Shown here one piece after another: positions 27,350 to 53,026 of a stretch of 64,000 nt of DNA. Positions within the stretch are counted from its first letter, which is position 1; the number at the start of each line of letters is the position of its first letter. The DNA lies in IMG/VR virus record IMGVR_UViG_3300020045_008999, positions 384,001 to 448,000 of that record, one strand, 5' to 3'. The notes under the pieces were generated by a model that was not told the origin of the DNA, did not search any database, and saw only the letters and a program-made list of their open reading frames with translations. This DNA comes from a virus (lineage: Duplodnaviria; Heunggongvirae; Uroviricota; Caudoviricetes). The translations under genes were made by a program, and so were the position numbers.

Positions 27350-27711
27350 GGGGGTGCCTGGTTTTGATTCTCTTTGTGCTTATATGATGCAAGTAACGGT
27401 AGTATTACCCGTTTAATAAATAGATATAAAACGCTTTAAATGGCAAAACAAATGAATTAGGGACTAGTGAAGATTTAGTAGCTGCCCTTGCAAACATCCT
27501 ACCTGTTAAAGAGGTTGCTTTCGCTTAATCGCAAAACGCATAAAAGATTAACAAAAAGTCCGTACGACTTAAAAGTGCCGATGCTAGGTTTCTAATTCGT
27601 ATCGTTAAGAAGTATTAGATATTCACCACTATAGAAATTGTGGTTATAAACTTGTGAACGAATTGTGTTTGTATGAATTGTAAGACGGGGGTTCGATTCC
27701 CCCCACTTCCA
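27350..27711 (+). ncRNA. ssrA: tmRNA
   Basis: 5' GGGGGTG pairs with 3' CACTTCC-A including G3:U70; T-arm GGGGG-TTCGATT-CCCCC; tag frame 27442-27528 ending VAFA-stop. Confidence 0.92.
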
Positions 27712-27799
27712 CAAAAAAGATGATCTAAAAATAGATCATCTTTTTTTAATATATAGTATTTTACTAGGATAAATATATAAATAACACTAAATTTACCAA

Positions 27800-35594: not shown

Positions 35595-37808
35595 ATGTAT
35601 ATAATAAATAAAGATTATTCAACTGGCGATATAAAAATCAGGGAAGACTTTGTCATTAATAAAATAGTTTCTGATTATTTGGTATTGCGATTTGGTAGAA
35701 GTGAGGAAATATTTGATATAGCTAAATTTAAATCATTTACTGCAATGTTTATTGGTATTCAGTCCAATATGGATGTGGTAGTCGAATATAGAATATCTCG
35801 CAATGGTGACACTTATGGCATATGGTTACCCATGATCAATGATACAATAGCAGAAGCCCCAAACCATTTGTTGTTTAGGATTGAAAATTTTCCATTGGTG
35901 AATGAAATAGATCGTTTTTATATTGATGTCAAAATTACGAAAAATCTTATAGATAAACCAATTGAATTAGTTAGCTATTCACTTAATGGGAAGATTGAAC
36001 GAAACTTACAATCCGGTGCCGATGAATTTTTAGTTATGCCGGGTGGTACCGCAGTTATAAAGCCGCCATATATATTTAAAATATTTAAATTGAGTGATGT
36101 TGAAATATTAGTAAATGGAAATCCTATAATCAAATATCGTTTTTCAAATGATAACGGTAGAACAGTTAGTGAATGGGAAATACTATCTAAAGAAAACATA
36201 AGTACTAAGAGAATAAATCCAATTAGGTTTTTTCAAATTGAATATCTTATAGAGAATGATACCAACTCACCGGTTCAAATTAATGATATTAATCTAATCG
36301 GTGATTTACAAAATGTAACATTAGATATCAAAACAAACCTTTATGGTATTCGAGAAGATTGTAATAGTTTAATGTTAAATATTGCGAATGGTATAAGTAT
36401 TGGTACTACGCAATCATCTGGGGATATGTCAGGGACTGTCCCTGGTAGTTCGGGTTTTTGTGCAAATGGTAGTGGCTTGGTTGCAATGAGTGCTGCTGAA
36501 CGGGCTAATTTATTCAACCCGTATCAACAAACACAAACTATTGATTTCCTAAACACAATAAGCAATGATGCGAATGCAATTTTCGGTCATGAAGTATTGT
36601 ATTTCATAACGGATGCCGATAGTAATGGGATTGACTATACATTTCATGAATACCAATTACTTAACTACGTTTGTAGCGAAACTATTAAAGTTTCAGTTGA
36701 TGGTAATAATTTCCCAGATAATCAAATATCTATAAATCAATTTGATTTATCATTATTTGAGTCATTTGAAATACACATCACTAAAGATGACTTCAAGGCT
36801 ATATTCGGTGTTGATAAGAGACCATCTAAAGAAGATTTCTTATGGTTCTGTACATTGAATAGAATGTTCCAAGTTGAACATGCACAAGCATTTCGCCAAT
36901 TTAATAATGCATCTATATATTATAAAGTGTTACTTAAAAAATATACACAAAAAGCAAATGTTGGTGCTGGGAACAAAAATATCGAAGATCGCGTACGAGA
37001 GCTTACTAGAAATTCGACAATTGATGAATTATTTGGTATGGAAATGGAAGATGATAAAGCAGCGGTGGCAAACAAAGAACAGTTTAATACTTTAACTAAA
37101 GATACACTAAGGTTAGAAACATCCGCTAGAATAATTAAAGAAATTGTGGAAAGTAGAACCAATGTGATTGCTAAAACATATTATGACTTGGCATATTCGA
37201 GACCGGGGGAAGAAGTAGTTAAATATCGTAATATGAAAAATGACTACCGAACATCTGATAATTTTGCTTTCTATTGCTGGTTTAACCTGGAAGAATATGC
37301 CATTAATGACGTACATAATTTGTTTAACTTTCATGATGGTTCATATGGATTTCGTGTTGATATTAAATCAAATGGTGTTGTGATTCAAATCAATTCGGAT
37401 GAATATAAACTGGACTTCGCAATACCTATCGGTACCTACACATATGACGATCTATCAGAGGATAAATGGGTTGCCTACTTGGTTAATGTGGATCAAAGGA
37501 ACCGCAATATTACGCAATATCTTTATAGAATGAGTGAAGTTAATAACCCATCATTGGAAATGGTGTATAGGGCCGCCAATGAGCTTATCGAGCAAGAATT
37601 TTACTTAGGTGATACTCAGGCAACTATTAGTGCATCTGATATAAAAATGACAAATATTACATTGTTCAATGATGTAATACCTGAAAGTATGCATATTAAA
37701 CTACTAAGTTCGCCAGTGATTAGAGACGATTCAAAGCACTTAGTTTTCACTGACAACGCGAATGCTACCTTAGTATTGCCAAATTATTCAATATCACAGG
37801 AAAAATAA
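35595..37808 (+). CDS. Neck/head-closure protein (central T4 gp14-like domain) with extra domains
   Basis: FGHEVLYF...FEIHITKDDF...RPSKEDFLWF...NRMFQV pattern. Confidence 0.55.
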   Translation: MYIINKDYSTGDIKIREDFVINKIVSDYLVLRFGRSEEIFDIAKFKSFTAMFIGIQSNMDVVVEYRISRNGDTYGIWLPMINDTIAEAPNHLLFRIENFPLVNEIDRFYIDVKITKNLIDKPIELVSYSLNGKIERNLQSGADEFLVMPGGTAVIKPPYIFKIFKLSDVEILVNGNPIIKYRFSNDNGRTVSEWEILSKENISTKRINPIRFFQIEYLIENDTNSPVQINDINLIGDLQNVTLDIKTNLYGIREDCNSLMLNIANGISIGTTQSSGDMSGTVPGSSGFCANGSGLVAMSAAERANLFNPYQQTQTIDFLNTISNDANAIFGHEVLYFITDADSNGIDYTFHEYQLLNYVCSETIKVSVDGNNFPDNQISINQFDLSLFESFEIHITKDDFKAIFGVDKRPSKEDFLWFCTLNRMFQVEHAQAFRQFNNASIYYKVLLKKYTQKANVGAGNKNIEDRVRELTRNSTIDELFGMEMEDDKAAVANKEQFNTLTKDTLRLETSARIIKEIVESRTNVIAKTYYDLAYSRPGEEVVKYRNMKNDYRTSDNFAFYCWFNLEEYAINDVHNLFNFHDGSYGFRVDIKSNGVVIQINSDEYKLDFAIPIGTYTYDDLSEDKWVAYLVNVDQRNRNITQYLYRMSEVNNPSLEMVYRAANELIEQEFYLGDTQATISASDIKMTNITLFNDVIPESMHIKLLSSPVIRDDSKHLVFTDNANATLVLPNYSISQEK
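37705..37777 (+). repeat. Direct repeat copy 1 (73 bp)
   Basis: 65/73 identical to 38267-38339. Confidence 0.9.
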
Positions 37809-38269
37809 TGAGTAAAGATATCAAAAAATTCGGAAAATTTATAAAAGAAACTGGTAGCGAAAAAATAAAAAGATCACTACTTAAAATATCCATGGTATAT
37901 TCAGCAAATTTCAATAAATCAACCACTGAATTAAACAATGGTTTGTGTGAAGATATTGCACATGATGTAATTGATGATATTGGTGGTGAATCTTACAACA
38001 CATTTATCATCGATGATGGATTTTTCTGGGATACTGATGTTGTTAGTGAATATACGACACGTAGTGGTGAATATTGGAATATTGATAATTTAAAAAAATA
38101 TGGTGATCCTCCTTTTGAATATCGGGATTTAGATAAGTTAGACTTGACTGGTCATGTTTGGATTTATCACAACGGTAAACACTATGATGTTGAAGCACTA
38201 GACGGGGTTGAAAATTTTTGGATGCTGCCTATCTATATCCGACAAATTGCGAAACTGAAATTATATTAA
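37808..38269 (+). CDS. Hypothetical protein with capsid-targeting-like N-terminus
   Basis: MSKDIKKFGKFIKE; NNGLCE...HVWI....HYD possible Cys-His-Asp triad. Confidence 0.7.
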   Translation: MSKDIKKFGKFIKETGSEKIKRSLLKISMVYSANFNKSTTELNNGLCEDIAHDVIDDIGGESYNTFIIDDGFFWDTDVVSEYTTRSGEYWNIDNLKKYGDPPFEYRDLDKLDLTGHVWIYHNGKHYDVEALDGVENFWMLPIYIRQIAKLKLY

Positions 38270-38339
38270 GTCCACCGGTGATTATAGACGATTCAAAGCA
38301 CTTAGTTTCCACAGACAACGCGAATGGGACCTTAGTATT
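38267..38339 (+). repeat. Direct repeat copy 2 (73 bp)
   Basis: Duplicate of neck-gene 3' region. Confidence 0.9.
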
Positions 38340-38540
38340 ACTTCTATATTTGATTTTAATCACCAAGAAGGAAAAATCAATGGTGGCGAAAGTGTCTGGT
38401 TAATTTCAGGATCGCCATCACCCAATAATATCGCGATACAGGGGTCATTGGTGCAGTTTGAAAACAATCCGGAAGAACAAGAATTGATGATATTAGATAC
38501 TACCAAAATACAAATATATAAAGTGACTAAATTAAAATAA
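38340..38540 (+). pseudogene. Start-less gene remnant (TSIFDFNHQEG...KVTKLK*)
   Basis: 66 open codons with protein-like composition beginning at the repeat boundary. Confidence 0.45.
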
Positions 38541-38647
38541 TATTCATTATTTTGTATATTACTTGACTAGTATCTGGTATTTTCATATATTTGTATTTTA
38601 TTATAGTTCAAATGGATTGAACGTCCTTAAAACTAAAAACAAATATT

Positions 38648-38905
38648 ATGAAAAACTTCTTTTACTTTATCGCCGGTGTGTGTTTTATCACACTAATTTC
38701 GGTAACTACCGTTTCAATTATGACAGTAAAACCTATGACCCCAAAGGTCACTATTGTTGAAGATTTTAGATCAATGTATGGATTGGAGAAAGAGATGAAG
38801 CACTTTATACAATCAAAAGTTAAAGAAGGATTCGTAGTAAAATCAATTGCTATTATGGATGATGAATCTACTAGCAAGGGAATTGTTGTTCTTGAAAAAT
38901 ACTAG
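38648..38905 (+). CDS. Small membrane-anchored protein
   Basis: N-terminal hydrophobic helix; TATATTTG at 38586-38593. Confidence 0.7.
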   Translation: MKNFFYFIAGVCFITLISVTTVSIMTVKPMTPKVTIVEDFRSMYGLEKEMKHFIQSKVKEGFVVKSIAIMDDESTSKGIVVLEKY

Positions 38906-38935
38906 ATACTATATTTACCATAAACGCATATTTCC

Positions 38936-38971
38936 AAAACCCCCAACATAATAATGTGTTGGGGGTTTTTT
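38936..38971. terminator. Bidirectional terminator closing the tRNA operon
   Basis: aaaacccccaacata...tgtgttgggggtttttt. Confidence 0.85.
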
Positions 38972-38972
38972 G

Positions 38973-39045
38973 AGCCAAATATCGGACTCGAGCCGATAAT
39001 CTTGTTGTTACAAATAACATGCTTCACCAATTAAGCTAATTCGGC
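38973..39045 (-). tRNA. tRNA-Thr(TGT)
   Basis: Cloverleaf; loop TT-TGT-AA; atypical T-loop CTCGAGT; A-C mismatch in anticodon stem. Confidence 0.8.
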
Positions 39046-39053
39046 AATTATTG

Positions 39054-39137
39054 AGCGCATAGACGGATTCGAACCGCCGTTGTACATATGTAACATCGTT
39101 TGCGGCGATGTGCCTTCGACCACTTAGCTATATGCGC
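39054..39137 (-). tRNA. tRNA-Cys(GCA), long variable arm
   Basis: GCGCATA/TATGCGC acceptor, U73, loop CC-GCA-AA, 15-nt variable region. Confidence 0.8.
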
Positions 39138-39146
39138 TTATTTTAG

Positions 39147-39219
39147 CGGGGACACTTGGCTACGATCCAAGTACCTACGGATTAACAGTCCGTTGCTCTA
39201 CCAATTGAGCTATATCCCC
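39147..39219 (-). tRNA. tRNA-Asn(GTT)
   Basis: ACGGA-CTGTTAA-TCCGT; G73; atypical T-loop ATCGTAG. Confidence 0.88.
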
Positions 39220-39225
39220 ATTTTG

Positions 39226-39298
39226 ATTCCCGACCTAGATTCGAACTAGGACTCAACACTTTAGAAAAATGTGGCTTTTCCAATTAAGCTACCGGGAA
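39226..39298 (-). tRNA. tRNA-Arg(TCT)
   Basis: ACATT-TTTCTAA-AGTGT; TTCGAAT T-loop. Confidence 0.88.
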
Positions 39299-39308
39299 AT
39301 CTTATTTG

Positions 39309-39389
39309 TACCGAGGGTGGGGATCGAACCCACACGCCTTTCGGCACCAGATCCTAAGTCTGGCGTGGCTACCATTACACCACCTCGGC
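39309..39389 (-). tRNA. tRNA-Leu(TAG)
   Basis: CCAGA-CTTAGGA-TCTGG; variable arm GCC-GAAA-GGC. Confidence 0.93.
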
Positions 39390-39395
39390 ATTTTG

Positions 39396-39469
39396 TTGTT
39401 TATGATGGACTCGAACCATCGACCACCGCAGTATCAGTGCGAGACTCTAACCAACTGAGCTAATAAACA
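39396..39469 (-). tRNA. tRNA-Ile(GAT)
   Basis: TCGCA-CTGATAC-TGCGG; TTCGAGT T-loop. Confidence 0.9.
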
Positions 39470-39479
39470 ATTTATTTTG

Positions 39480-39564
39480 TACCGAGAAAGGGGATTGAAC
39501 CCTCACGAGCATTACTGCTCACTGGATTTTAAGTCCAGCGTGTCTACCATTTCACCACCTCGGC
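39480..39564 (-). tRNA. tRNA-Leu(TAA)
   Basis: CTGGA-CTTAAAA-TCCAG; variable arm GAGCA-GTAA-TGCTC. Confidence 0.93.
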
Positions 39565-39569
39565 ATTTG

Positions 39570-39644
39570 TTGTCCATGCTGGATTCAAACCAGCGACCTA
39601 ATCGGTGTAAACGAATTGCTCTAAATCAACTGAGCTAATGGACA
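39570..39644 (-). tRNA. tRNA-Val(TAC)
   Basis: TGTCCAT/ATGGACA acceptor; loop TT-TAC-AC; T-loop TTTGAAT. Confidence 0.85.
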
Positions 39645-39646
39645 AT

Positions 39647-39675
39647 AAAAAAACCCCTAAACTTTCGATTAGGGG
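39647..39675 (-). terminator. Attenuator terminator directly upstream of first tRNA
   Basis: CCCCTAA-tcgaaagt-TTAGGGG-TTTTTTT ending 2 nt before tRNA-Val. Confidence 0.85.
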
Positions 39676-39735
39676 ATTTTGGTTATTATTTAATTTATGA
39701 TTTCAACTCACGAACTATACAACAATGCCTCCCCC
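39671..39735 (-). promoter_or_regulatory. Putative antiterminator hairpin
   Basis: Nested pairs GGGGGA/UCCCCU, AUUGUU/AAUAAU, UAGUU/AAUUA, GUGA/UCAU; sequesters the terminator 5' arm. Confidence 0.65.
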
Positions 39736-39822
39736 ATAACAAGTCAGTCTAATACATAAAGTATTATTCACGACAGTTAGTGTGTTAAGGTTATTAATTG
39801 TATTTAAGTTCATTGTTTTCAT
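39715..39822 (-). CDS. tRNA-operon leader peptide MKTMNLNTINNLNTLTVVNNTLCIRLTCYGGGIVV
   Basis: Hand translation; 28/35 codons specify amino acids of the downstream tRNAs; ATG 7 nt from promoter motif. Confidence 0.8.
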   Translation of the reverse strand: MKTMNLNTINNLNTLTVVNNTLCIRLTCYGGGIVV

Positions 39823-39829
39823 CTTATAG

Positions 39830-39838
39830 TATATATTA
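39830..39838 (-). promoter_or_regulatory. Late promoter motif TAATATATA for leader-tRNA operon
   Basis: Same motif precedes capsid, tmRNA and about 20 other genes. Confidence 0.7.
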
Positions 39839-39863
39839 ACTTTTTATTCTTCCTTTTGGGTTA

Positions 39864-40604
39864 TTATTCAATTATATCTACTTTTGTAGAAAAAGTTTCT
39901 CTTATTTTAGTTGTTTTGTCCAAAGTTTCTAAAAATGAATTGACTTTGGTCCTAATATTAATATCTTTCTTAATTTCTACTATTTCTAAGTTAATTTCCC
40001 GTGCTTTATCATTATCATTTTTTTGCTTATACAAACCCAATAATTCTGACATTATTCTCAATAGTTCGGTGTCTTTGACAAGTCTTTCAGCAGACTTCTC
40101 TAACGATTCTTCTACTGTGATGTTATTGATATACCAATCTTTTTGGGCGACCCAATTAATTTCACTTTCATCTAGTTTTAATTCATAAAATGGGTCTATT
40201 GATAACATAACTTCCAAGTCTAATTTATTCCTGTTTAACCACGTTAAATATTTATTTAAAATGGTAGGATCAGTGACAAACATTTTCTCAGACATTTCCC
40301 ATTTATTTCTGGGTTCATAATGCAGAAGTCCCAAATAGAATCTGACAAATTCAAGTGCCATTGGTGTATTTTTATCATCCCATACACAATAGCCTTTAGT
40401 TGGTACATAAAATATATTTGACCCAGCACTACCTATGGTAGTACCAGTGTGGCAAGCTTTAACTAGGCCTTCGTCAATTAACTCATCAATGTATCGTGAA
40501 AATTCTATTCGATTTGGGGCTACCTCGGCCACGATTCCGGATGTTCCCTGACCTGTGAGTTTTTGAGTCTCTACTATTGCGGTGTAAATTTCAGATTTAT
40601 TCAT
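39864..40604 (-). CDS. Hypothetical protein with C-terminal coiled coil
   Basis: 246-aa ORF. Confidence 0.7.
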   Translation of the reverse strand: MNKSEIYTAIVETQKLTGQGTSGIVAEVAPNRIEFSRYIDELIDEGLVKACHTGTTIGSAGSNIFYVPTKGYCVWDDKNTPMALEFVRFYLGLLHYEPRNKWEMSEKMFVTDPTILNKYLTWLNRNKLDLEVMLSIDPFYELKLDESEINWVAQKDWYINNITVEESLEKSAERLVKDTELLRIMSELLGLYKQKNDNDKAREINLEIVEIKKDINIRTKVNSFLETLDKTTKIRETFSTKVDIIE

Positions 40605-40636
40605 TTTCTATATTATATTTGTGTAAATAATTTAAA

Positions 40637-41155
40637 CTATTCTATAACTTTCATTAGTGAATAACACAATACATATTTGAAATCCTCTGTGAAATCTTCA
40701 TCATCCAAATATTCACACTGTGGTTGTAGGGTGCCTATATACTCCCCCCACTTGTGCCAACGCCATCCACCACCTTTGCCTCGATTAGATTTATCTTGGA
40801 ATACCGGGGTTAGTGTAATTATATATCGTTTATCTGGATCCATTATCTGTGGTGCGTATAGATTTATAATTTGGTCTATATTATCAGCAACACCATATGA
40901 GCTAATAAATATTCCATCAAAATCATCCACGAAAAAACCAGTATCTGGATCACATATGTGCGCATTCAAATCCGGTCTCTCAATTTTTTCATGAAACTCT
41001 TCTGCTGCAAAGTTATAATCAAAACTACAGCGGTATATTCCCTTATCAACCTTCCATTTGGCATCAAATTGTGGCACATATTCGAAATTTGCCTCTTTTG
41101 CGATTTTAGTCCTACGTTTACTTTCTTGTATATTTGGTGTTAAATCTACTAGCAT
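40637..41155 (-). CDS. Hypothetical phage protein
   Basis: YGVADN...GGWRWHKWGEYIG. Confidence 0.75.
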   Translation of the reverse strand: MLVDLTPNIQESKRRTKIAKEANFEYVPQFDAKWKVDKGIYRCSFDYNFAAEEFHEKIERPDLNAHICDPDTGFFVDDFDGIFISSYGVADNIDQIINLYAPQIMDPDKRYIITLTPVFQDKSNRGKGGGWRWHKWGEYIGTLQPQCEYLDDEDFTEDFKYVLCYSLMKVIE

Positions 41156-41218
41156 ATTTTTATTTTAATTTTTTAGATGATATTTGGAACACAATCGATC
41201 GTTTTGTATTTGGATAAC

Positions 41219-41524
41219 TTATTGGACCATCGGTTCTAGATCGTATGCAATTAAATCACAAGGTGGTTCTTGTAGTACAAGAAAAATGTCAAGTGCCATT
41301 ATTTTATGAGCTTTGAAAATTTGATAACACATATTCCATTCAGCAGTGTTAATTGTAATTCCATGTTCAGTTCGGACCCCCTGGCAAATGCCCCATTTTC
41401 GCATTACACCATAGAATTTATTCAAAGAAGATTTGAAACTATCATCTTCTGAAATTTTTATATTATTCAGATCGTTGTAAATTTTTTCCAAATCGTTGAC
41501 AAAATTACTGTTTCGCTTATTCAT
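41219..41524 (-). CDS. Hypothetical protein
   Basis: 101-aa ORF. Confidence 0.6.
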   Translation of the reverse strand: MNKRNSNFVNDLEKIYNDLNNIKISEDDSFKSSLNKFYGVMRKWGICQGVRTEHGITINTAEWNMCYQIFKAHKIMALDIFLVLQEPPCDLIAYDLEPMVQ

Positions 41525-41567
41525 GTTATAGTGTTTAATAGTTTGCTTTTATACCCAAAATGTCATG

Positions 41568-41837
41568 TTAGTGTTCATTGCAAACCAACACTCCGCAAAC
41601 ACCAGAATAATTTACAAGCATAGAACTTCCATCCTCCTCGTTATATTCAGTGAACGTTTTTGCGCCATAACCTGCATCAGAATGAAAAGTATGTATTTCA
41701 AATTTTCCAGTCATTCCACTTTTCCATAAAAACACATCACCTGTTTTCAATTCGTCAACGCTTTTCAACGTGATAGGCAACGAAACACTAACATCGTGTA
41801 TAAGAGATTGCTTATTTGGTTTTGTATCTTTCGACAT
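41568..41837 (-). CDS. Hypothetical protein in integron-cassette-like unit
   Basis: Stop lies inside CACTAAC core site; start lies inside an attC-like palindrome. Confidence 0.65.
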   Translation of the reverse strand: MSKDTKPNKQSLIHDVSVSLPITLKSVDELKTGDVFLWKSGMTGKFEIHTFHSDAGYGAKTFTEYNEEDGSSMLVNYSGVCGVLVCNEH

Positions 41838-41917
41838 ATTTTTTGAATTTAATGATTAGTAATTTTTGGAGGTTTAGTCTTGAATCAGCAACCTCCCATA
41901 CACGCCGTCCGTTATAT
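41786..41917 (-). mobile_element. attC-like recombination site
   Basis: ATATAAC...18-nt arm...arm...GTTAGTG; arms 41887-41904 and 41795-41812 pair fully with three G-T pairs. Confidence 0.5.
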
Positions 41918-42181
41918 GTGATGGAATTACATCAATAAATAATTAGTCGTTTGATGATTTTTGCTGATCATATACATTATTTGCAATTTTTTCCAAATCC
42001 TTCGATATATAATTTAAAAATGCCAACATCTGCTAAATGTCGGGTTTCAGTTTTTCTCTAGAACTCCATCAATTCGATGTTTTATCGCATTTAAATCACT
42101 GATTATTTCCGGGTTATTTTTCAAACAAGTGTGTAGTAGTTTCATAATACTTTTTTTAATTATCAGGCAATCAGCGTGGTT

Positions 42182-48561: not shown

Positions 48562-49986
48562 TTAATTATTTGGTTTTATTTTAATATTGTCCCCTTTTTT
48601 CAGTTCTTCGAATTTTGCGTAATCACTTTTTTTAATTTTGACCCGCCTAGTAAATGTCTGCCCATCTTTTATATCATATACCGGATTTGTGGGAAGTGTA
48701 ATTTCTTGGCATAAGTTAGACATACTCACTTTATCTTTAAATATACCTTGTGTATTCACATTGTCTATATTTTGAATATAAATACGTCCGGTATTCATAC
48801 GCTCTACTGATAATGTTAGTAACAAATCTTTACCATTTACTTTTTTACATGGAATAGTTTTATCAGATTCGTATTTCAGATAAAGTTCGTTGAATTCTGG
48901 TAATCCAAATGCTTCGTATAATCCAGGCACATCAGATGTCGAAAATAATGTGATATCTTCCCCACGAACCATTCGTTCCCAAAACATTTTAGACATTTGA
49001 ATAGAATAGTCTAATCTACGTACGCGATTATCATCGGTACCTTTATTATTTTTCAATACTAAAATTTCCTCAATTTCTTTATTCCATATTGGAAAGTGAA
49101 CCGTTGTTGATCCATCTCGCAATCCTCCTTGTGAACAACTTTTAGTAGCAGCTTCTGCTAATTTCAAAAAAGGAATTATCCCAGTATGCGTAGCTTCACC
49201 TCTTCTAATTTCCGACCCATGTGAGCGCAATTTACCCATTCCTAAGCCGATACCTGCTCGTCTTGATACAAATCTACCAACAGCATGATTTGAAGCGTAT
49301 ATGGAGTCTAAATCGTCTCCTAACTCAATTAAAGTACAACTAGCAAATTGTCTAGTCCCAGTTCTCACACCAGCCATAATTGGTGTTGGTATGTTGAGCC
49401 ATTTGGCAGTTAGCTCTTTATAAAATTCCTTAATATCTTTTAGGTTATCAAATAAAGTTGCAGCAATTATGATAAATGCGAATTGTGGGGTCTCGTAAAC
49501 ATATCCAGTATTTCGATTTCTAACTAAATAAGTAGCATGCATTTTTTGATATGATGCATAAGGTAATTTTGTATCATTTGAATGGTCAACCACCTCGTTA
49601 ATCTTGTTCCACATCTCATCATCGTATTTACCAAGTAACGTAGGATCATATAACCCAATTTCAATGTTTTTTTCAACAACTGACTTAACACTTGGCATAT
49701 CTTCATCTTTAAAAACCCCAAATATTTGCTTTCTAGTGTAGAAGCTAAATAATCTACTAGCAACATATTGATAATCCGGATTTTGTAGTGAAATCAATTC
49801 TACTGATGAATTGACAAGCACTTCGTGTATTTTTGTGGTTTTTATACCATCAAAAAATTGTATATTTGCGTTCATCAGAACATCTGATGGATTTGCATCG
49901 TATCCCTCACATGCCCAAGATACAACACTATTTAATTTATCAACTATGAGTTTTTCACTCACCCCATTTCGTTTTATTACATTCAT
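48562..49986 (-). CDS. nrdA: Ribonucleotide reductase alpha, N-terminal fragment (with ATP cone)
   Basis: VIKRNG ATP cone, PTPIMAG, QFASC, SQGGLR, SNLCQEI. Confidence 0.93.
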   Translation of the reverse strand: MNVIKRNGVSEKLIVDKLNSVVSWACEGYDANPSDVLMNANIQFFDGIKTTKIHEVLVNSSVELISLQNPDYQYVASRLFSFYTRKQIFGVFKDEDMPSVKSVVEKNIEIGLYDPTLLGKYDDEMWNKINEVVDHSNDTKLPYASYQKMHATYLVRNRNTGYVYETPQFAFIIIAATLFDNLKDIKEFYKELTAKWLNIPTPIMAGVRTGTRQFASCTLIELGDDLDSIYASNHAVGRFVSRRAGIGLGMGKLRSHGSEIRRGEATHTGIIPFLKLAEAATKSCSQGGLRDGSTTVHFPIWNKEIEEILVLKNNKGTDDNRVRRLDYSIQMSKMFWERMVRGEDITLFSTSDVPGLYEAFGLPEFNELYLKYESDKTIPCKKVNGKDLLLTLSVERMNTGRIYIQNIDNVNTQGIFKDKVSMSNLCQEITLPTNPVYDIKDGQTFTRRVKIKKSDYAKFEELKKGDNIKIKPNN

Positions 49987-50920: not shown

Positions 50921-53026
50921 TTATACTGGAATTAAATCGATTTGTTTTTTAAGTAAATCAGTTTTTGTCACTTTTACCATGATTTTATCACCAAGTCGAT
51001 ATGATATACCGGCCGACTCATTAATTAGAGAATACGTCTTACTATCAAAATGGAAATGCCCATTAAGTGACTTTGTGCTAATTGAGCCCTCACACTTACT
51101 TTCTACTAACTCAACATATAAGTTATATTCAGATATTCCTGATATAACAGCATCGAATATTTGATCTTTTCTAGCTTCCAAATACTTTATTTGCATGTAT
51201 TTTATGGAATCTCTTTCCGCAGAGGTGGCCAATTTTTCCTGACGATTTATATGTTCGCATATTTCATCAGATTTTAACATTATTTCATTTGTCTTGGTAC
51301 GCTCTTGGTTTAAAATTACGCTCAATAATTGGTGATTTTTTATATCGGAAAACCTTCGAATCGGGCTTGTAAAATGCGAATAATGACCGAAGCTATCCCC
51401 GAGACCCCAGTGGCCTTTATCAGTGGCTGAATAAACCGCCTTTTGCATGGTCCTAATTGCTAAAGTATTTAGTAAATTTTCTTCTGGGGTATCCTTGATT
51501 TCTTCCATTAGTGCATTGATGGATTCCTTTACATTGTTTTCATCAAATTTATATCCAAACTGCTTACATAAGTTAGCTAGTTCATTCACTTTTTCTAAAG
51601 TTGGTGCCGGATGATGCCTAAATAGTCCTCGCTTAATACTTTTGTATATGTGCTGACCTACTGATTCATTGGCAAGTAACATGAATTCTTCAATTAAGTA
51701 ATTTGCTACATTTTGTTTTTTCTCATAAACACTAATTGGTAAATCATTTTCGTCTAATTTAAATTTGATCTCACTTTTATTGAAAATCAATGTATTATTT
51801 TGCATTCTACGTTCTCTCAAAATTTTAGCCTGAGCATCCACTGCTTTAATTGCTACTTCTATTTCATCATTTGTTACATCAGAAATTAATACCTCATATG
51901 CAGCCTCATATGAATAATCTCTATCAATGTGAATAATTGTTTTACCAAACCACTTATCTATGATTCCGCCATTTTTATCAAACTTGAAAAGAACACTAAA
52001 TGCTAATTTATCTTCATTTGGGTGAAGACTACATATGTTGTTAGATAATACTTCCGGAAACATTGGAACACACCGATCAACTAGATACACTGAGGTTGCT
52101 CTATTAAAAGCTTCTTCGTATAACTTCGTATCTTCATTCACATAATGTGTAATATCTGCAATATGTACCCCGATTTCAACTACTCCGTTACCCAAATCTT
52201 CAAATGATATAGCATCATCTTTGTCTCTGGCACCAATTGGGTCAATGACAAATGAAATGGTATTTCGTAGGTCCCTACGTTTGTCAATTTCTGATTGGTG
52301 GATAATTGGATCGATTAATGCTGCTTCATCTAAAACATCTTGCGGGAAAGTATATGGAAATCCATATTCCGATAGAATTGCATGTAGTTCAGTTTCATGC
52401 TTACCGGATTCGCCAATTACATTAGTCACTTTTCCATGTGGTTTTGCATATGCGTCATCCCATTTGGTAAATTCTACCACTACTACATCATTTGTCTTAG
52501 AATCCATTAAGAAATTTTTTGGTATGTAAATATCTGTATACATTTTTGCATTTTTAGATACAACATATCCGAATTTCTCTCGACGATCCATCGTTCCTAT
52601 AAATGCTACTTTATTACGTTTAGTAATATTTACAATTTCCCCAATTCTCCTCAAACCTTTCATGGTCGCCACAACAGTGACTGCATCACCATCGAACGCA
52701 CGATTGAGTCTATCCGCATAGATGAATATATCATCGGAATCACCACAATTTACATAACCATTACCATTTGAAGTAATCGATATAATACCAGTATGAACTT
52801 TATCTGGATCGATTGTATAAACTTCATTACCATCTTTATTGATGGTATGAATAACATACTCTGATGATTGAAGTCTTTTGATTTCGCGATCTACATCATT
52901 TTTATCAATTGAAAACGCATTTGATATAGCTTCTGCGGTATCTTTATTAGATACTAAATGGTTTAATATGTTATGAAACTGTTTAGTAAGCGTTTTCCCC
53001 TTATTTTTTTTCTTTTCTTTTTTCAT
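50921..53026 (-). CDS. rnr: Ribonuclease R (RNB family)
   Basis: IDPIGARDKDDA, VHIAD, IEEFMLLAN, HFTSPIRRFSD, S1 domain. Confidence 0.95.
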   Translation of the reverse strand: MKKEKKKNKGKTLTKQFHNILNHLVSNKDTAEAISNAFSIDKNDVDREIKRLQSSEYVIHTINKDGNEVYTIDPDKVHTGIISITSNGNGYVNCGDSDDIFIYADRLNRAFDGDAVTVVATMKGLRRIGEIVNITKRNKVAFIGTMDRREKFGYVVSKNAKMYTDIYIPKNFLMDSKTNDVVVVEFTKWDDAYAKPHGKVTNVIGESGKHETELHAILSEYGFPYTFPQDVLDEAALIDPIIHQSEIDKRRDLRNTISFVIDPIGARDKDDAISFEDLGNGVVEIGVHIADITHYVNEDTKLYEEAFNRATSVYLVDRCVPMFPEVLSNNICSLHPNEDKLAFSVLFKFDKNGGIIDKWFGKTIIHIDRDYSYEAAYEVLISDVTNDEIEVAIKAVDAQAKILRERRMQNNTLIFNKSEIKFKLDENDLPISVYEKKQNVANYLIEEFMLLANESVGQHIYKSIKRGLFRHHPAPTLEKVNELANLCKQFGYKFDENNVKESINALMEEIKDTPEENLLNTLAIRTMQKAVYSATDKGHWGLGDSFGHYSHFTSPIRRFSDIKNHQLLSVILNQERTKTNEIMLKSDEICEHINRQEKLATSAERDSIKYMQIKYLEARKDQIFDAVISGISEYNLYVELVESKCEGSISTKSLNGHFHFDSKTYSLINESAGISYRLGDKIMVKVTKTDLLKKQIDLIPV

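Follow-up and report, generated by a model that had tools for sequence, protein, structure and literature searches.

A probable ribosome-mediated leader-peptide attenuator ahead of an eight-gene tRNA operon in a phage genome

Architecture of the tRNA locus

The DNA studied here is a window of 64,000 nucleotides, positions 384,001–448,000 of IMG/VR record IMGVR_UViG_3300020045_008999 (Caudoviricetes). Coordinates refer to this window unless the genome is named. The source record is a single sequence of 596,785 bp with a G+C content of 31.9%, estimated by CheckV to be ~98% complete. A preliminary description had placed a promoter-like motif, a 35-codon open reading frame (ORF), a terminator ending 2 nt before a tRNA-Val gene and eight tRNA genes in that order on the minus strand. 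Re-reading of the sequence, together with ARAGORN and Rfam, bore out this layout in every detail.

All elements of the locus (38936–39856) lie on the minus strand. The outermost is a purine box, AAAGGAAG (39849–39856), situated 10 nt upstream of a promoter-like and start-context motif, TTAATATATAC (39829–39839), whose core TAATATATA occupies 39838–39830. The leader ORF (39715–39822) has its ATG at 39822, 7 nt past TAATATATA, and runs for 35 codons to a TAG stop codon at 39717–39715; in an automated scan it was the sole candidate ORF ahead of the tRNA-Val terminator. Two segments within it were delineated by folding. Segment 1 (39787–39817) provides, in the full-length MFE structure, the 5′ strand of a long hairpin that sequesters segment 2 in the absence of a ribosome. 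Segment 2, with the core UGGGGGAGG (39728–39736), lies 10–19 nt before the stop codon and is the predicted upstream strand of an antiterminator. Segments 3 and 4 make up an intrinsic terminator (39647–39680) in which a 7-bp G+C-rich stem (39675–39654) is followed by a T7 run (39653–39647), ending 2 nt before tRNA-Val.

The block of eight tRNA genes extends from 39644 to 38972, and each gene was called by both ARAGORN and Rfam. In order of transcription, these are tRNA-Val (UAC; 39569–39644), tRNA-Leu (UAA; 39479–39564), tRNA-Ile (GAU; 39395–39469), tRNA-Leu (UAG; 39308–39389), tRNA-Arg (UCU; 39225–39298), tRNA-Asn (GUU; 39146–39219), tRNA-Cys (GCA; 39053–39137) and tRNA-Thr (UGU; 38972–39045). 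The tRNA-Cys gene, at 85 nt, has an extended variable region that is unusual for a Cys tRNA. The operon is closed by a second terminator (38936–38965), a G+C-rich stem followed by a T run, which lies between convergent genes. Most neighbouring genes could be assigned to no family; a metallophosphoesterase and the small chain of ribonucleotide reductase are encoded nearby.

The preliminary description had allowed that a separate promoter between the terminator and tRNA-Val would refute its reading of the locus. Such a promoter is excluded, since a gap of 2 nt leaves no room for one. A scan for sigma-70 promoters was uninformative, with no enrichment over shuffled sequences (41 against 38.4). 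Searching 36000–42000 with Rfam at E values up to 1 returned only the tRNAs and sub-threshold chance matches, with no T-box, leader or riboswitch. A sub-threshold match to Yfr10 (36.4 bits against a cut-off of 43 bits) was rejected as merely the terminator hairpin.

Codon content of the leader

The leader ORF has a restricted composition. Codons for N, L, T, I, V, C or R account for 28 of the 35 and for every position of an unbroken regulatory run at codons 5–28 (39739–39810). Judged by the amino-acid usage of the genome itself, the count of 28, as given in the preliminary description, has a binomial probability of 2.2e-6. Under strict wobble rules, 22 of 34 leader codons are cognate to the array, where 10.2 are expected (P = 2.9e-5), and all eight anticodons have at least one readable codon in the ORF, again as had been proposed. 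A caveat is that six of the 28 matching codons (CTT, ACT three times, GTC and GTT) require four-way wobble by U34 tRNAs.

Because the ORF ends in TAG, a codon that some megaphages recode, the possibility of an alternative genetic code was weighed. It was rejected: the genome has no suppressor tRNA according to ARAGORN, and long ORFs are normal in translation table 11.

Related cassettes in the same genome

The whole genome encodes 18 tRNAs in five loci and one tmRNA (ARAGORN). Reading of the region upstream of every tRNA locus revealed a cassette of the same kind at four of the five, the exception being a Tyr-Met array. The four share an architecture in which the purine box AAAGGAAG is followed 10 nt later by TT[AT]ATATATAC, an ATG 3–6 nt past this motif opens an ORF of 23–35 codons, and a strong terminator stands 2–24 nt ahead of the first tRNA. 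With gaps this short, the arrays are left without another route to expression. Nowhere else in the 597 kb do motif, short ORF and terminator come together. The composite AGGAAG-N7-13-T[AT]ATATATA likewise has exactly four sites in 597 kb, all at tRNA leaders.

The three further copies of the purine box AAAGGAAG fall outside the window, at genome positions 69760, 64177 and 509475, and relatives of this phage carry similar purine-rich boxes. An exact-pattern scan of IMG/VR for purine box plus motif was set aside, as its more than 116 scattered matches were evidently due to chance.

The motif is not confined to leaders. T[AT]ATATATA, followed by ATG after 4–5 nt, precedes 65 ORFs of at least 100 codons across the genome; the leader ATGs, having the same context, therefore sit where real genes start. 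This suggests that the T[AT]ATATATA context is a phage-specific promoter giving leaderless or near-leaderless mRNAs. Many of the 65 long ORFs belong to a multi-copy family of ~200 amino acids. The tmRNA (27350–27712) and the Tyr-Met array (genome 20977–21222) are directly preceded by a different sequence, TAnnTTTG ... TATAAT-like, which we take to resemble the Bacteroidota -7 promoter element. The likeness points, weakly, to a host among the Bacteroidota and to a tmRNA and a Tyr-Met array that are expressed constitutively.

The other three leaders also carry codons for the arrays that they precede. Ahead of the Trp-Phe-His-Lys array, the leader contains one Trp, two His, five Phe and four Lys codons; ahead of the Ser-Arg-Ser array, it contains a run of four Ser, two Arg and one Ser; and the leader of the tRNA-Gln locus has three spaced Gln codons. 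The binomial probabilities of these matches are 1.6e-3 (Lys/His/Phe/Trp), 1.5e-3 (Ser/Arg) and 2.4e-2 (Gln), compared with 2.2e-6 for the Val-to-Thr operon. When the four leaders and four arrays are set out as a 4 × 4 matrix, every leader scores highest with its own array, and the true pairing is the best of the 24 permutations.

Cassettes in related phages

The nearest relatives in GenBank are uncultured phages with genomes of about 630–735 kb. We compared the tRNA regions of three of these, LR756502.1, LR745206.1 and LR756501.1, scanning them automatically, under ATG-only and strict-terminator criteria, for short ORFs followed by a terminator and then a tRNA. The three genomes add 17 cassettes, giving a total of 21 from four genomes. 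In two of the 21, the ORF was picked among two or three candidates after viewing, and homologous cassettes of different genomes are not independent samples.

The relatives extend the range of leader-array combinations with amino-acid sets that are absent from the present genome. Glu/Tyr arrays lie behind leaders rich in Glu and Tyr codons; Ile(UAU)-Gly-Ala arrays lie behind leaders with ATA, GGN and GCN codons; and Pro/Asp arrays, with Gln arrays next to them, lie behind leaders with Pro, Asp and Gln codons. A five-gene Leu array with four different anticodons is preceded by a leader that uses all six Leu codons, and four tRNA-Gln genes stand behind seven consecutive Gln codons.

The preliminary description had suggested, as a check, that leader codon content should co-vary with the tRNA set in related phages. 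It does so across the 21 cassettes of the four genomes. For 18 of the 21 leaders, the array that follows is the best match within its genome, and the remaining three sample the next array downstream as well. Permuting leaders and arrays within genomes gave a summed score of 16.1 ± 7.0 with a maximum of 51.4; the observed score is 66.8, a value reached by none of 100,000 permutations. Scored at the level of codons, the observed value is 63.0 against 15.1 ± 6.4. On the strength of these within-genome permutations, we reject the idea that the codon match merely reflects compositional bias.

In LR756501.1 (735 kb), the scan detected no cassette at several arrays, among them Gly/Ala/Val/Thr/Arg and Ile/Cys/Asp/Asn/Tyr. 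Either these arrays are unregulated or their leaders were missed by the ATG-only and strict-terminator criteria. In LR756502.1, protein-coding ORFs occur inside or just before tRNA arrays (about 402960–403395 and 401250–401500). One inserted ORF, between Leu and Thr tRNAs, carries an HNH-type Cys/His motif, and a 66-codon ORF occupies a 232-nt gap between a leader terminator and the first tRNA.

A similar layout is found in the cultured phage phiCbK (NC_019405.1), in which terminators are annotated ahead of tRNA blocks. Short ORFs before two of the blocks are rich in the amino acids of the block concerned, Pro/Lys/Leu/Ser in one case and Phe/Val/Ile/Gln in the other. These ORFs are gp335, annotated as a hypothetical protein of 45 amino acids, and an unannotated ORF of 32 codons, at 49540–49677 and 51341–51439, respectively. 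Each precedes a terminator and a tRNA block, and the unannotated ORF lies behind a TTGACA-type promoter.

Codon choice and selection in the leaders

The correspondence of leaders and arrays extends to the choice among synonymous codons. Arg codons are CGN in six of seven cases with ACG/UCG arrays and AGA in all three cases with UCU arrays (Fisher, 0.033). Ile codons are ATA in six of eight cases with UAU-only arrays and ATT in all four cases with GAU-only arrays (Fisher, 0.06). As read from the sequences, leader codon choice is thus one that follows the anticodon within an amino acid.

This tracking bears on what an attenuator built on these leaders (see below) would sense. The signal might be amino-acid starvation, that is, tRNA charging rather than tRNA abundance, with tRNA output tied to the nutrient state. 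To a ribosome, a missing tRNA and an uncharged tRNA are indistinguishable, and classical attenuators do answer charging. Feedback of this kind would nevertheless be futile, because extra tRNA leaves amino-acid starvation unrelieved. Moreover, the preference for CGN or AGA at Arg and for ATA or ATT at Ile, and the use of all six Leu codons, are expected of an isoacceptor sensor and not of an amino-acid sensor. We therefore consider a starvation switch improbable and favour a circuit that reads the supply of individual tRNAs.

Comparison of the present leader with its homologue in LR756502.1 reveals 16 identical codons, eight synonymous changes and eight non-synonymous changes. Seven of the eight non-synonymous changes fall after codon 25, and insertions and deletions are multiples of three, from which we infer that the regulatory run is conserved as codons. 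On the evidence of such alignments, changes in the regulatory run of homologous leaders appear to be mostly synonymous. In the 3′ part of the ORF, the G-rich strand and the terminator 5′ arm vary among three homologues yet remain complementary.

RNA folding and the polarity of the proposed switch

The leader RNA folds more stably than shuffled sequences (z = −3.14; none of 200 shuffles equals it). The preliminary description had proposed a long imperfect hairpin in which GGGGGA pairs with UCCCCU of the terminator 5′ arm, and this pairing forms in folds from which the terminator 3′ arm is withheld. Under the same treatment, the 5′ arm pairs with the last 5–35 nt of the ORF, or across the stop codon, in about 16 of the 21 leaders. 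Taken by itself, this leader shows an antiterminator complementarity that falls short of significance in comparison with shuffles (z = −1.5, p = 0.09), since the shuffles preserve its G-rich composition. Over the whole set, the complementarity beats shuffles in 11 of the 21 leaders, with a combined p of 7e-11.

The effect of a translating ribosome was modelled by folding the nascent RNA with a 28-nt footprint shifted codon by codon. This check, also suggested beforehand, gave a clear outcome for the present leader: the antiterminator is intact with A-site codons 1–25 and is lost once the A site has reached codon 27, and thereafter up to the stop. The same switch, by which the 5′ arm is freed from the antiterminator as the ribosome nears the end of the ORF, is seen in the nascent folds of most other leaders.

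In the full-length MFE structure without a ribosome, the regulatory run pairs with the G-rich segment (1:2) and the terminator forms. In the nascent RNA of this leader, the 1:2 state is predicted to be less stable than the 2:3 state by 1.6 kcal/mol, and in nascent-RNA folds many homologues lack a clear 1:2 pairing. A trp-like scheme of four segments is therefore a plausible model that is not settled. When the full leader was folded at equilibrium with ribosome masks, the terminator won at nearly every ribosome position; the model must accordingly rest on co-transcriptional kinetics, as it does for trp. Equilibrium folding was rejected as a test because attenuation is kinetic, and the nascent-RNA folds were used in its place.

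The terminator stem begins 22–40 nt past the stop codon, so that a ribosome terminating there can cover the antiterminator and leaves the terminator free. This favours the classical polarity, in which slow decoding leads to read-through. The polarity is inferred, without measurement, and the reverse can be envisaged: efficient leader translation would give read-through and stalling would give termination, and production of the phage tRNAs would be self-reinforcing. Some support for this arrangement comes from a few homologues in which the strand that forms the antiterminator is 16–36 nt before the stop codon and is incompletely covered by a ribosome positioned there. In most leaders, however, a ribosome near the end of the ORF removes the antiterminator and not the terminator, from which it is in any case too distant to block it, and we regard reversed polarity as very unlikely.

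Hardly tenable at all is the notion that the short ORF is incidental, or encodes some other small protein, and that the hairpin is an ordinary terminator belonging to the upstream gene or serves RNA processing or stability. Short ORFs are common in A+T-rich DNA, and the upstream gene of 246 codons (39864–40604) has no other terminator. On this view, however, the arrays would be left without a promoter, and the restriction of the cassettes to tRNA loci, the 18 of 21 own-array best matches and the surplus of synonymous over other changes within the regulatory run would go unexplained. The leader matches no known RNA family in Rfam, and the permutation tests speak against this reading.

Proposed mechanism

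We think it highly probable, in the absence of experimental evidence, that a ribosome-mediated leader-peptide transcription attenuator gates this eight-gene phage tRNA operon and that it is one of four in the genome. The preliminary description had read the locus in this way, and its reading is supported in silico by the matching in 21 cassettes, the restriction to tRNA loci and the footprint-mask folds. The proposal is built on the observed anatomy, tRNA-locus restriction, leader-array matching by amino acid and by codon, pattern of selection and, in silico, alternative pairings.

In this scheme, transcription would start at or just before the leader ATG, and the leader would be translated while RNA polymerase moves ahead. 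Should the matching aminoacyl-tRNAs be scarce, the ribosome would be slowed on the N/L/T/I/V/C/R run, occupying segment 1. Segment 2 (GGGGGAGG, just before the stop codon) would then be free to pair with the terminator 5′ arm, the terminator would be blocked and the tRNA genes would be transcribed. Fast decoding would instead carry the ribosome to the end of the ORF, where it would cover segment 2; the terminator would form, and transcription would stop 2 nt before tRNA-Val. The net effect would be a negative feedback that keeps the supply of exactly these tRNAs at need. The phage would thus probably make its tRNA set only when ribosomes decode the matching codons slowly. Without transcript or ribosome data to draw on, the transcription start, translation of the ORF, switch polarity, physiological trigger and dependence of read-through on translation speed are all inferred.

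An Rnl1-family RNA ligase (PF09511, E = 1e-17) is encoded outside the window, at genome 246474–247046. Rnl1 is the enzyme family by which T4 mends tRNA cut by anticodon nuclease, and the presence of this ligase would suit a phage with a means of repairing damaged tRNA. A circuit tuned to anticodon-nuclease defence, as opposed to a general shortfall in decoding, remains speculative, the support from an Rnl1-type ligase being only circumstantial.

Phage tRNAs are usually viewed as constitutive helpers in codon usage or as spares against anticodon nucleases, and to our knowledge the control of their expression is largely unknown. We raise tentatively, as a possibility that we ourselves doubt, that several unrelated phage lineages run isoacceptor-resolved 'tRNA on demand' circuits whose leaders are sensors of damage in counter-defence as well as homeostats. 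The triggers would be host tRNAs that have been cleaved by anticodon nucleases, degraded during takeover or are ill matched to phage codons. If the attenuator model itself is right, phages gauge decoding capacity codon by codon and respond with the matching tRNAs, which would carry attenuation beyond metabolism and into the apparatus of decoding. The leaders would then be a readable record of the tRNAs that each operon was meant to back up, and the cassettes would offer a simple rule by which regulated tRNA operons can be found in metagenomes. The similar layout in phiCbK makes the idea directly testable.

Comparison with known systems

A full-text literature search, which excluded subscription-only papers, yielded no description of tRNA genes, whether of phages or of bacteria, under the control of a leader-peptide attenuator. 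This form of control is apparently undescribed, and its design recurs across phage lineages. The features of the trpL/hisL/leuL/thrL/ilvL class met by the cassette, on in silico evidence, are a short ORF with a credible start, cognate codons, an intervening terminator and an antiterminator that a ribosome could block. A feature of the class is not met, in that the regulated genes are eight tRNAs and not genes of amino-acid biosynthesis or a synthetase, which sets the cassette apart from the classical attenuators as a variant.

Among systems that act on the decoding machinery, the pheST attenuator, with its pheM leader, controls a synthetase, and T-boxes bind uncharged tRNA directly, without a ribosome. 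What pheST and the T-box share with the phage cassette, as proposed here, is a feedback loop in which the supply of a charged tRNA governs, by way of transcription termination, the expression of a gene for the decoding machinery. The phage leader differs from a T-box in having no match to the T-box covariance model in Rfam.

The hisL leader contains seven His codons. The Gln cassettes of the relatives are similar in kind, with seven consecutive Gln codons before the terminator, their output being tRNA-Gln genes; the Gln leader of the present genome is unlike hisL in having only three spaced Gln codons. A leader with a run of one codon is also exemplified by pheL (PMC3082878).

In mycobacteria, leaderless short ORFs encoding polycysteine are reported to act as Cys-responsive attenuators (bioRxiv 10.1101/834739). 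The phage leaders, with an ATG 4–7 nt past the promoter-like motif, may resemble these in starting at or next to the 5′ end of the transcript, a leaderlessness that has not been demonstrated. The downstream control mechanism and the targets are different.

Close parallels in design are the enterobacterial multivalent attenuators, of which the ilvGMEDA leader senses Ile, Val and Leu and the thr leader senses Thr and Ile. Like the phage leaders, these have a short translated leader, several kinds of regulatory codon and mutually exclusive hairpins, and the position of the ribosome decides between the outcomes. The phage cassette differs from them in regulating tRNAs and not biosynthetic enzymes, in spanning up to seven amino acids and eight anticodons, in a codon choice that follows the isoacceptor, and in being encoded by a phage.
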